Positions 30,875-43,097 of a stretch of DNA of 64,000 nt are shown piece by piece (position 1 is the first letter of the stretch; each line of letters opens with the position of its first letter). Where the stretch lies: NCBI GenBank assembly GCA_018238155.1, contig JABCTZ010000019.1:131774-195773 (forward strand), given 5' to 3'. The notes under the pieces were generated by a model, which saw only the letters and a list, made by a program, of their open reading frames with translations, made no database searches and was not told the origin of the DNA. A program made the position numbers and the translations under genes. This DNA comes from Candidatus Heimdallarchaeota archaeon (lineage in GTDB: Archaea > Asgardarchaeota > Heimdallarchaeia > JABLTI01).

Positions 30875-31969
30875 TTGACTGATAAAATTGCTTATTTGGA
30901 CTACAAAATATTAGAGAATTTTATGATCGATGTATTCAAAGGAATCGGCGTTCCTGAAGATGATGCGAAGATTTGTGCTGAAATATTAATTATTTCTGAC
31001 CTTCGAGGTATAACTTCTCATGGCGTTCAGAGGTTAAAAATGTATTATGATCGAGTAACAGCTGGCATTCAAAAACCTGTTACCGAAATAAAAATTCTGA
31101 GTGAAGCACCTTCAACAGCTTTAATTGATGGAGGACACGGAATGGGTCACGTTGCTGCATACAAAGCTATGGAGATTGCTATTAAGAAAGCTAAAGAAAC
31201 TGGTTCTGCAGCCGTAGCAGTTGGTAATTCAACTCACTATGGTATAGCAGGTTATTACCCATTAATGGCTATTAAAGAAGGGATGCTTGGCATGGCTGTA
31301 ACAAATGCAAGGCCATCTATTGCACCAACTTTTGGGATAGAACCAATGATGGGCACAAATCCATTAACATTCGGTTTACCAACAGACGAAGAATTTCCAT
31401 TTGTAATTGATTGTGCTACTTCAATAACCCAAAGAGGAAAAATAGAAGTTCTCTCAAGAACAGAAACACCCGCACCTGAAGGTTGGGTGATAAATGAAGA
31501 CGGAAGTTTAGCAACTGATACAGTAAAAATATTGAAAGATTTGAAAGAAGGAAAAGCTGCACTATTGCCTTTAGGAGGTGCTGGAGAAACTCTAGGGGGA
31601 CACAAAGGATACGGCTATGCTGCTCTTGTAGAAATACTTTCAGCAGCTTTTTCTGATGGACCATTTCTGAAAGATTTAACTCTTGAAAAAGGGTATAAAA
31701 TAGGTCATTTCTTTTTCGTGATTGATATCTCAAAAATCATTTCATTAGATGTTTTCAAGAAAATTGCAGGTGATATTTGTCGTTCATTAAGAAATTCCAA
31801 AAAAGCACCAGACCAAGAGCGCATTTATACTGCCGGTGAAAAAGAATTTGAGATCGAGAAGAAAATAAAGAAAACTGGTGTTCCACTCAATAAGAGCTTG
31901 CAAAATGATCTGCTTTTCATGCAAAAAGAATTAGGGTTGAAACTGTTGCCACTTTTTATGGACAAATAG
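30875..31969 (+). CDS. Ldh_2-family (malate/L-lactate/sulfolactate) dehydrogenase; C-terminus supplied by the inserted element
   Basis: DLRGITSHGV, STHYGIAGYY, GTNP, GHKGYG; the last ~9 codons and the stop derive from the left end of the element. Confidence 0.92.
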   Translation: MTDKIAYLDYKILENFMIDVFKGIGVPEDDAKICAEILIISDLRGITSHGVQRLKMYYDRVTAGIQKPVTEIKILSEAPSTALIDGGHGMGHVAAYKAMEIAIKKAKETGSAAVAVGNSTHYGIAGYYPLMAIKEGMLGMAVTNARPSIAPTFGIEPMMGTNPLTFGLPTDEEFPFVIDCATSITQRGKIEVLSRTETPAPEGWVINEDGSLATDTVKILKDLKEGKAALLPLGGAGETLGGHKGYGYAALVEILSAAFSDGPFLKDLTLEKGYKIGHFFFVIDISKIISLDVFKKIAGDICRSLRNSKKAPDQERIYTAGEKEFEIEKKIKKTGVPLNKSLQNDLLFMQKELGLKLLPLFMDK

Positions 31970-31974
31970 GACAT
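31953..31974 (+). repeat. Left terminal inverted repeat
   Basis: TTTTTATGGACAAATAGGACAT, the exact reverse complement of 43065-43086; imperfect extension to 31941. Confidence 0.9.
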
Positions 31975-31993
31975 ATAAATAATGTGAAAATTT

Positions 31994-41439: not shown

Positions 41440-43083
41440 ATGCCTGCTCGAAAGAAAAATCTCACAACCAAAAGCTACCGGTTCAAACTACAAAGAGATA
41501 GACGATTGAACTGGTTCAAAGAGTTGGTAATGAAAGTAGCGATACTGCTACTCAATGAGCTTTGGTCGGAAGAGTGGATAGAACGAGTAGGTAAAAGTGG
41601 ACTAAAAGCATACAAAGTTATCAACGAAGCGAGAGCACAAATCGAAGGGATTTATCTGCCTTCAAGAATTAGAAGAGGAATTACAGAACAAGTTGGCAGG
41701 ATCATTCGGGGACAATACAAAAGGATGAATTGTTACTATGATTGCTTGGAAATAGTGAACTGGTTGGGAGTGGAAACAAACGAGAACAAACTCCTAGCAG
41801 TTGTTATGCAGCATTGTCGAACAACATCAAAGAAAAGCAAAAAGACCTACCCGCTCTATAAGAAAGTCATGGTCAAGCAAACAGTAGAGATGATAAAGAA
41901 CTGGCACGAACGATTTGGAAAAGGTTTTACGACATTCTCATACACAGACTTTGTGCAACCAAAAATTCACAGGTTCTCATTTCCCTACGGACCAGATGAT
42001 GGACAAGCAATACAATATTCCGCTCTCGATGGAAGAATCCACTACAAACTAAAATTGCCTGTTTGCTCAGAACCTAAGACAAGAAACGACTGGATGTGGG
42101 TCACAAGCGAGATAGCTATCCCTGAAAAAGTAAAAGCAAAAACAAAAACAGCAATAAGCAAGCAACCACGAAAACCGACCTTGATAACAAAAAGACTCAA
42201 AGGAGGACTAACCTATTTCTTCCTGCAATTCCCTTGGGAATACAAAAAAATGCAAAAGAGAAAAGGAAAAGAACGTGTCCTTGCCATCGACCTTGGCTTG
42301 AAAAAACTGGCAACATGTATTGTCGGGGAAAACGGTAAACAGATATCAAAACCAATCACGATAAAACTCCGAGGTTCACAATACCGTCACATCGAAAGAC
42401 TCTACACTCACATAGCAGGGATACAAAAGAAGCTATCCAAACTACAAAAACAAAACAGAATCTATCTGGGAGTAACAATAGAGGAGGAGAGAAGAAGGCT
42501 CTATGAGAAGAGAAATCGATTAGGAGACGAGCTTGTATTTGCAACAACAAATACACTCATCCAAATTGCTCTCAAGTGGCAGTGCACGAAAATAACGATA
42601 GAAGATCTTCGCTCTTACAAACCTCCACGAGGTAAAAGAAGTTGGTCAAGAAGGCTCTCAGAATGGCTCAGAGGAAGAATAGCTCTCAACTTAGAGCACA
42701 AGTGCAAAGAAAACGGTCTAACGCTCCAAAAGGTTTGCCCATGGAATACTAGCTCCCACTGTCCTCGCTGTGCAGCAAAAGGAACGAAAGTCAAAGGACC
42801 AAACAACCTCCTTGAAGATAAAAAAGGTCGCTTCTTTCACTGCCCTGAATGTGGCTTCACAGCAGATCGAGATTATATCGCTGCGGTGAACATCTATCGA
42901 GCAAGCTTCATAGATTATCATTCAATTAAAAGTCTGAAAGACACCAGCCCCGTGCCCTACATGGACTCGGGAATCCTTCACCCAACTGTTTCTGGTGAGG
43001 GCTCAGAGATGATCAGTAACAACAACGGTCTTGTTACTGTGACTGGGAATGAACAAATAGTGCAATGTCCTATTTGTCCATAA
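41440..43083 (+). CDS. tnpB: TnpB/Cas12f-like RNA-guided endonuclease (IS200/IS605/IS607 accessory family)
   Basis: RuvC-I VLAIDLG, RuvC-II ITIEDL, TSSHCPRC...CPECG Zn finger, RuvC-III DRDYIAAVNI; no tnpA nearby. Confidence 0.9.
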   Translation: MPARKKNLTTKSYRFKLQRDRRLNWFKELVMKVAILLLNELWSEEWIERVGKSGLKAYKVINEARAQIEGIYLPSRIRRGITEQVGRIIRGQYKRMNCYYDCLEIVNWLGVETNENKLLAVVMQHCRTTSKKSKKTYPLYKKVMVKQTVEMIKNWHERFGKGFTTFSYTDFVQPKIHRFSFPYGPDDGQAIQYSALDGRIHYKLKLPVCSEPKTRNDWMWVTSEIAIPEKVKAKTKTAISKQPRKPTLITKRLKGGLTYFFLQFPWEYKKMQKRKGKERVLAIDLGLKKLATCIVGENGKQISKPITIKLRGSQYRHIERLYTHIAGIQKKLSKLQKQNRIYLGVTIEEERRRLYEKRNRLGDELVFATTNTLIQIALKWQCTKITIEDLRSYKPPRGKRSWSRRLSEWLRGRIALNLEHKCKENGLTLQKVCPWNTSSHCPRCAAKGTKVKGPNNLLEDKKGRFFHCPECGFTADRDYIAAVNIYRASFIDYHSIKSLKDTSPVPYMDSGILHPTVSGEGSEMISNNNGLVTVTGNEQIVQCPICP

Positions 43084-43086
43084 AAA
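43065..43086 (-). repeat. Right terminal inverted repeat
   Basis: ATGTCCTATTTGTCCATAAAAA; contains the tnpB stop codon. Confidence 0.9.
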
Positions 43087-43097
43087 AAGGAACGGTT

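Follow-up and report, generated by a model that had tools for sequence, protein, structure and literature searches.

A precisely delimited insertion encoding a giant Cas1-fold protein and TnpB in a Heimdallarchaeota genome: a probable autonomous transposon of the Asgard aCas1-TnpB class

What moves a stretch of archaeal DNA that has the outline of a transposon, encodes a Cas1-like protein and a TnpB nuclease, and carries no recognisable transposase of the DDE, Y1 or serine type? The question is raised by an 11-kb insertion in a Candidatus Heimdallarchaeota archaeon contig, of which a window of 64,000 nt (the whole stretch of DNA analysed here, to which all coordinates refer) was compared with the organism's own genome (G000) and with its relatives (among them G004, G005, G009 and G017). 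An earlier reading of the letters (henceforth, the sequence-only reading) had interpreted the locus as a delimited example of a distinct Cas1-driven element, in which a Cas1 integrase is paired with TnpB. The pairing is supported by the results given below, and positions 31939-43097 are almost certainly a mobile element of the 'aCas1-TnpB' class; as for the 'Cas1-driven' part, we infer that the giant Cas1 protein of the element is its transposase, a view towards which we lean.

The perfect 22-nt inverted repeat (31953-31974 / 43065-43086) on which the sequence-only reading was built was recovered by an inverted-repeat search, and its imperfect extension was confirmed by gapped local alignment, which takes it to 31941-31974 / 43065-43097 (approximately 33 bp, with one gap and three mismatches). 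The limits of the inserted DNA were provided by G009, the closest relative (same genus, with an Ldh_2 protein 97% identical), in which the left flank (to 31938) runs straight into the right flank (from 43098). This empty site reads ...TTAGGGTT|AACTCAG..., is clean and carries neither of the two repeat arms, so that the repeats are absent where the genes are absent; the border itself is ambiguous by one T, and 31938-43096 is equally valid. Were the repeat fortuitous, or had the 3' end of Ldh_2 been duplicated in inverted orientation around ordinary chromosomal genes, one could account for the overlap of the left arm with the Ldh_2 stop codon and for a second, weaker outer repeat (31923-31944 / 43109-43130) that the same search found outside the element ends. 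The outer repeat, however, is a native host hairpin that is present in the G009 empty site, and the inner one is missing from that site and recurs elsewhere. Its 20-nt core has 4 copies in the own genome and 11, 7, 3, 4 and 1 in five relatives, as against 0-2 for a reversed-pattern control, and is thus not a chance match; the empty site and the core counts together rule this explanation out, and we give it practically no weight.

The native stop of Ldh_2 comes 7 codons after the insertion point, and the claim that a housekeeping gene is split by the element holds only in part: the gene is indeed interrupted, but it is still complete by Pfam (profile positions 3-332 of 333), with its tail swapped (the native end ...GLTQYEFPF*, retained in G009, is replaced by ...GLKLLPLFMDK*). 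The Ldh_2 proteins of 29 relatives align only to residues 355-360 (28 of the 29 to 355-357), that is, to the insertion point. By comparison of the empty with the filled site, the two junctions share at most T (1 nt) or GGTT (4 nt), and there is therefore no target duplication of 14-15 bp as in casposons. The G009 empty site folds at -9.7 kcal/mol (z -4.5), with the insertion point in a two-base bulge between stems. We conclude that the window holds a discrete insertion with terminal inverted repeats (TIRs) of about 33 bp, placed after a host GGGT(T) in a hairpin-forming site.

The search for other copies and for an empty site, which the sequence-only reading had recommended, yielded both, as further ends were found in the own genome and in five relatives. 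Whole-genome BLAST places right ends in the own genome on contigs 3, 8, 15 and 21 and left ends on contigs 6 and 39; further left-end copies are present on G009 contig 9 and in G004 and G005. All 15 right-end copies listed stop at the same ...GGAACGGT, beyond which unrelated host sequence begins, and the left ends terminate in ...AAC(T)GTTG followed by 2-4 bases that vary; as read from the printed flanks, GGGT or GGGGT adjoins approximately 13 of the 17 left-end copies. The ends are multi-copy in the genus and belong to a family of mobile elements. A second full copy (11,173 bp, with the same ends) sits on G009 contig 9 and encodes four intact genes (546, 542, 1392 and 1058 aa), so that a homologous gene set is bounded by the same TIRs in another genome. 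In the uninserted G000 allele of this copy the right-flank sequence is again preceded by GGGT and the right junction is clean; beside the G009 left end approximately 290 nt of host sequence are missing. Finally, G004 and G005 contain three miniature elements of approximately 340 bp, which encode no gene and retain the two ends together with the right-end region.

If these elements move, their own gene content offers few candidates for the enzyme. Pfam, NCBIfam and PADLOC detected in the element neither a polymerase nor a recombinase of the DDE, Y1, serine or tyrosine type, in agreement with the sequence-only reading (which had recognised no DDE transposase, Y1 or serine TnpA, tyrosine integrase or PolB), and the giant Cas1 fusion is the only element protein with an integrase-type fold. 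It has 18 homologues (36-74% identity, most of 1369-1392 aa and three shorter), none of which carries a precomputed Pfam domain; the named ones come from Candidatus Heimdallarchaeota, and one is called an Lrp-type regulator in its source. Residues 745-1130 were modelled with AlphaFold2 from a 15-sequence alignment (mean predicted local distance difference test score, pLDDT, 76.7), and the model was compared with the PDB. The top 50 Foldseek matches were all Cas1 or casposase, the best being the casposase-DNA complex 6OPM (E 1.9e-8). VIA-align gave Z scores of 15-17 to the Cas1 of several systems and of 15.9 to casposase (maximum 17.0, over model residues 23-381), and placed 40 Cas1 entries at Z 8.6-17.0, with the next unrelated chain at Z 5.5. 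By both methods, the modelled 1392-aa protein contains a true Cas1 fold, made up of an N-terminal beta domain and a C-terminal alpha-helical catalytic domain; the sequence-only reading, which stood or fell with this fold, stands in this respect.

Part of the conserved positions agrees with the Cas1 catalytic motifs. Residues H1020, D1036, E1039 and E936 are invariant in 15 homologues, and hhalign against a canonical Asgard Cas1 (E 0.032) aligns GLFH with the LH motif of Cas1 and YFDLIE with LDxxE. The N-terminal 760 aa (model pLDDT 72) gave matches to superfamily 2 (SF2) helicases such as Hel308 (template modelling score, TM, 0.2-0.37) and none to polymerases; because these fold matches are weak, the helicase assignment is tentative. 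Invariant Cys pairs at 597/600/610/643 and 691/694/716/719 suggest Zn-ribbons, and the C-terminal 260 aa are read, from sequence alone, as a winged helix.

The other protein of the proposed pair is matched in profile searches. TnpB passes the NCBIfam model guided_TnpB (101.6 bits, cutoff 100), and its IDLG, IEDL and ADRD motifs, as well as its Zn finger, align to solved Cas12f/TnpB chains. An alignment of 12 copies (gene-less miniatures included) shows that approximately the last 175 nt up to the right end are conserved and fold into hairpins, 7 base pairs of which show compensatory changes in the RNAalifold consensus; Rfam gave no relevant match. Beyond the end, the flanks are unrelated between copies, and that of the window is host-derived, as the empty site shows. 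Together with this region, an invariant end, a variable host flank and GGGT on the left reproduce the known layout of IS200/IS605 elements, where the target-adjacent motif (TAM) lies on the left and the right flank serves as guide; from this layout the TnpB of the element is predicted to cut the empty Ldh_2 allele, and a homing role for TnpB and its omega-RNA appears likely to us. The 22-nt right arm was also considered as a possible guide, spacer-like and directed at the 3' end of Ldh_2, and this was rejected: the arm is found at the end of every copy, and the left arm is missing from the empty site.

Between the repeat arms, the listing of open reading frames (ORFs) together with Pfam gives five ORFs that amount to four large genes, the number that had been proposed from the letters. 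The first two ORFs are one helicase-nuclease gene, called as two because of a single in-frame TAG (33842-33844); at its position four uninterrupted homologues have R, K or I, and the sequence is well conserved on both sides. The TAG may have arisen by a recent nonsense mutation, may be a sequencing error or may be read through. Homologues of this gene are uninterrupted (1029-1063 aa), their Metallophos domain was seen where scanned, and PADLOC matches the gene to SngC, DruE and Cas3. The LAGLIDADG_3 match of the LAGLIDADG-HTH gene is weak (24 bits, cutoff 22.5), and no single stretch of it passes alone. Neither a tandem repeat nor a CRISPR array was found in window positions 20000-55000, in keeping with the sequence-only reading, which had seen no array. 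The coordinates of all features are collected in Table 1.

Table 1. Features of the inserted element and of its target gene in the 64,000-nt window
Feature	Coordinates	Strand	Description and evidence
Ldh_2 target gene, malate/L-lactate/sulfolactate dehydrogenase family	30875..31969	+	last 9 codons and stop come from the element
Host GGGTT, TAM-like target motif	31934..31938	+	directly 5' of the insertion; present in the G009 empty site
Whole inserted element	31939..43097	.	11,159 bp; the G009 empty site joins 31938 to 43098
Left terminal inverted repeat (LE)	31941..31974	+	conserved terminus AACTGTTGCC..., with 2-4 variable nt before it
ORF, MZB and Metallophos	31994-33769	-	Pfam
ORF, DEAD and Helicase_C	33842-35173	-	Pfam
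DEAD/DEAH helicase with MZB (DUF1998) Zn domain and calcineurin-like phosphoesterase	31994..35173	-	1059 codons; Pfam, homologue alignment
Giant Asgard Cas1 fusion	35139..39317	-	1392 aa; SF2-helicase-like N-terminus, Cys4 Zn-ribbons, Cas1 domain, presumed winged-helix C-terminus
Cas1 two-domain core	35943..37055	-	aa ~755-1125; AlphaFold2 model, Foldseek, VIA-align, hhalign, invariant columns
LAGLIDADG_3 and helix-turn-helix (HTH_3) protein	39638..41176	-	512 aa as called; Pfam; homologues of 495-555 aa
TnpB	41440..43083	+	547 aa; RuvC D/E/D motifs and Zn finger; stop codon inside the right TIR; Pfam, NCBIfam
Candidate omega-RNA scaffold	42922..43096	+	conserved structured 3' region ending at RE
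Right terminal inverted repeat (RE)	43065..43097	+	ends ...AAGGAACGGT at 43096
Predicted TnpB guide, host flank right after RE	43097..43116	+	matches the empty Ldh_2 allele beside GGGT
Displaced native Ldh_2 3' end	43098..43122	+	25-nt remnant (7 codons and TAA); empty-site comparison

The four genes (tnpB, LAGLIDADG-HTH, giant Cas1 and helicase-MZB) occur together on other Heimdall contigs as well, amid different neighbours and at 41-78% identity. The TIR-like ends of the distant contigs belong to another sequence type: at three of these loci (L031, L032 and L034) a blind local search for inverted repeats gave weak or no matches, and by eye their ends share GTTAAC..CCATAA-type repeats, with exact termini that are not fixable.

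We reason that the window carries an autonomous transposon, and regard the following scheme, taken in full, as fairly probable. The giant Cas1 fusion would bind the TIRs, with the Zn-ribbons and the C-terminal region as its presumed contacts, and join the 3'-OH ends of the element into targets beside GGGT, while the helicase-phosphoesterase, and possibly also the LAGLIDADG-HTH protein, would process or excise the ends. TnpB and its omega-RNA, with the right-flank host sequence as guide, would then cut the vacated or empty allele (recognised by GGGT and a guide match), and homologous repair would restore the element, as has been shown for the TnpB of IS200/IS605. The miniatures would be moved in trans; because such gene-less copies exist, a trans-acting enzyme that recognises the TIRs is implied.

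Several observations weigh against this scheme. The first catalytic glutamate of Cas1 (in 'EG') aligns to 'GG', for which reason the catalytic triad is only partly verified; the invariant E936, approximately 10 residues downstream, may substitute for it. Pfam PF01867 (Cas_Cas1) is not matched by the giant protein (E <= 0.01), and no Cas1 call came from Pfam, NCBIfam or PADLOC; a search of PDB sequences with the family profile finds no Cas1, and phmmer against the same sequences failed or was marginal. Sequence-level similarity to Cas1 is thus marginal, and only the fold comparison is decisive. The products of insertion are equally awkward: casposases and Cas1-Cas2 insert in a staggered fashion and leave duplications of 14-15 bp or of repeat length, and insertion 3' of a short motif without duplication is the product typical of Y1 transposition in the IS200/IS605 family and not of Cas1. 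The window junctions resemble IS605 products rather than Cas1 products. Moreover, the window copy has a premature TAG in its helicase gene, part of the module could be cargo (because DUF1998/MZB helicases are common in defence systems), and literature searches turned up no experiment on any Asgard Cas1-TnpB element.

The same junctions lend themselves to another account, according to which the mobile core consists of TnpB and the two ends (an IS1341-like solo TnpB), moved in trans by an enzyme encoded elsewhere, with the other three genes as cargo that has another role, such as defence, DNA repair or some Cas1-mediated acquisition. Such a core would fit the missing target duplication and the fixed motif at the left end, as in IS200/IS605, and the fact that gene-less miniatures with just the ends and the RNA-like region do transpose. 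It would also fit a distant locus (L090) in which tnpB, together with its end, has another orientation and is parted from the other three genes by a tRNA gene, the unequal divergence of two copies in their tnpB-LAGLIDADG and Cas1-helicase halves (69% against 83.5% identity), and the matches of MZB helicases to defence-system models. We nevertheless consider it unlikely. Y1 transposase (PF01797) was not found in G009, G005, G004 or G017, which hold 3-11 ends each, and only a marginal match to a 22-residue fragment of Y1_Tnp was found in G000 (as these genomes are 84-92% complete, its absence is not proven); the TIRs are symmetric, and not the asymmetric hairpin ends of the IS605 type. Furthermore, the three supposed cargo genes always occur together, inside the TIRs in both end-mapped copies (the window and G009 contig 9) and, in four further loci, between TIR-like ends of another type or beside tnpB, and the Cas1 fold keeps invariant H, D and E at integrase positions.

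A third account has the element spread by LAGLIDADG homing, in the manner of an intein or a group I intron ORF, with no part for Cas1 and TnpB in the movement. That the LAGLIDADG_3-HTH protein is a conserved member of the module speaks for it. LAGLIDADG homing enzymes, however, recognise one long specific site, and the ends adjoin many unrelated flanks with GGGT as their only common feature; the Pfam match, as stated above, is weak, and proteins that combine LAGLIDADG and HTH (such as WhiA) are DNA-binding regulators, not nucleases. We judge this account very improbable.

Returning to the giant Cas1 fusion as transposase, the junctions can be reconciled with it if the protein inserts beside GGGT with essentially no duplication, and with a site preference that co-evolved with the TAM of TnpB, so that the integrase would pick sites which the RNA-guided nuclease can later re-cut. 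We put this forward tentatively, as a possibility that falls somewhat short of an even chance. To our knowledge, duplication-free insertion has no precedent in the Cas1 family, as casposases and Cas1-Cas2 always duplicate their target.

How does the element relate to systems that are already described? Its resemblance to casposons lies in a Cas1-fold protein as the sole integrase candidate, in the TIRs, in insertion at the 3' end of a gene and in 6OPM as the best Foldseek match. It differs from them in that casposons encode PolB, whereas no polymerase was detected here (by Pfam, NCBIfam, PADLOC and fold search), in that they generate a 14-15-bp target duplication, whereas the overlap here is at most 1 or 4 nt, and in that its Cas1 domain is part of a 1392-aa fusion protein whose N-terminus is helicase-like, with TnpB and an omega-RNA-like region alongside. 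With IS200/IS605 and IS1341 elements it shares a TnpB with an intact RuvC triad, a structured RNA region that extends to the right end, a guide that equals the right flank and a fixed left motif that acts as TAM (both predicted, in this case), the lack of target duplication and the miniature non-autonomous copies. Unlike IS200/IS605, it has no Y1 and no IS607 serine transposase, its ends are symmetric 33-bp TIRs instead of asymmetric subterminal hairpins, and it extends over 11 kb with three large extra genes and a TnpB of 547 aa (approximately 400 aa being typical). Type V CRISPR-Cas systems likewise bring together, at one locus, a nuclease of the TnpB/Cas12 family and an integrase of the Cas1 family, their two ancestral parts; here, by contrast, the element encodes no Cas2, the window interval given above contains no CRISPR array, and the variable 'guide' is flanking host DNA and not an acquired spacer.

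The closest likeness is to a class that has been predicted before. Asgard Cas1 homologues were reportedly described by Makarova et al. in 2020 (in CRISPR J). The possibility that some of them belong to new mobile elements was reiterated by Koonin and Makarova 2022 (PMC8730458), and Altae-Tran et al. 2023 (PMC10691335), who cite and build on the homologues of Makarova et al. 2020, recognised TnpB groups linked to Asgard Cas1 (aCas1) variants, named 'Cas1H-Asgard-1/-2'. In that paper, Asgard Cas1 is taken to be the likely transposase of a distinct transposon family, because its loci are often repeat-flanked, and a hypervariable region downstream of tnpB is reported to start after a conserved T and to be followed by a conserved GTTCACTCA motif. 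The published class and the window element have in common an Asgard host, a highly diverged Cas1 beside tnpB, a repeat-flanked locus and variable sequence after a conserved T (the right ends listed here stop at ...GGAACGGT). They differ in the GTTCACTCA motif, as no such motif is shared by the right flanks printed in our comparison; the motif may belong to the other published subgroup. A candidate for it in the window, GTTAACTCA at 43095-43103, was discarded, as it is host sequence by the empty site and is missing from other copies. The window element thus belongs to the already published aCas1-TnpB class, and the idea of the sequence-only reading was right, though not new.

Since the class had been predicted by computation, the window copy matters as an unusually well-delimited and testable example of it. 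Published work on Asgard Cas1-TnpB elements rests on gene neighbourhoods; for this locus the exact ends and the empty site are in hand, a TAM (GGGT) and a guide can be proposed as candidates, and there are natural miniatures as well as an intact sister element on G009 contig 9. Within the portions of the published text accessible to us we found no mention of base-exact ends given by an empty site, of the missing duplication, of the GGGT motif and the hairpin target, or of miniature derivatives and of a helicase-nuclease and a LAGLIDADG protein as conserved partners. The puzzle set by the locus is that of a Cas1-fold candidate transposase with duplication-free junctions like those of IS605, which points either to new Cas1 chemistry or to a hidden transposase, and its answer would inform models of how type V CRISPR-Cas was assembled from TnpB and Cas1 elements. 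Should the giant Cas1 indeed be a transposase whose site preference co-evolved with the TAM of TnpB, the element would show, in a form alive today, how Cas1 and a Cas12 ancestor worked together before there were CRISPR arrays.

Other Cas1-related genes are present in the own genome. One canonical Cas1 (PF01867) is detectable, at contig 15 (C15:365909-366790), and three further diverged Cas1-like genes (L002-L004; C19:25247-25810, C43:11919-12317 and C6:44585-44998) lie in ORFs of 1228, 630 and 628 aa that match residues 925-1114 of the giant protein. The marginal Y1_Tnp match of the same genome (L092, C6:29587-29652; 22 residues of the Y1_Tnp N-terminus, E 0.0026) is located just outside the contig-6 left end, and may be an IS200 remnant that was used as a target.

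In each of the miniatures (L043 on G004:C70, L057 and L063 on G005:C45 and C117), the two TIRs are present along with the conserved RNA-like region at the right end. L057 is flanked by mutual inverted repeats (AAAGAAGGG.. on each side), like the hairpin target in the window. A second empty site was sought for a G005 miniature, and the homologous G000 intergenic region was too diverged to be read. Among sequencing runs that contain the sequence, none of RNA is listed, and those of DNA consist only of small-share assembled contigs. Between the window copy and that of G009 contig 9 (L071), the helicase and Cas1 genes are 83.5% identical and the LAGLIDADG and tnpB genes 69%, which suggests an exchange of modules.

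Some of the more distant loci depart from the arrangement seen in the window. At L090 (JAUWKS010000015.1, 28548-50669; 41% identity) tnpB has the other orientation: together with its ...GAACGGT end it faces the other three genes, from which the tRNA gene separates it. Next after the helicase gene comes a methylase of type I restriction-modification (N6_Mtase/HsdM_N). A tRNA-like sequence was also noted by eye at another module copy (L037, on a JGI 3300031565 contig), approximately 180 nt past the stop of the helicase gene. Lastly, a degraded relative of the element in the own genome (L069, G000:C6:28000-47000) has a left end and a truncated MZB-Metallophos ORF, along with an unrelated 418-aa IS605-type TnpB, a HEAT/AlbA_2 gene and a 46%-identical large TnpB with one TGA, followed by a LAGLIDADG gene, a PD-(D/E)XK gene and a short Cas1-like operon.

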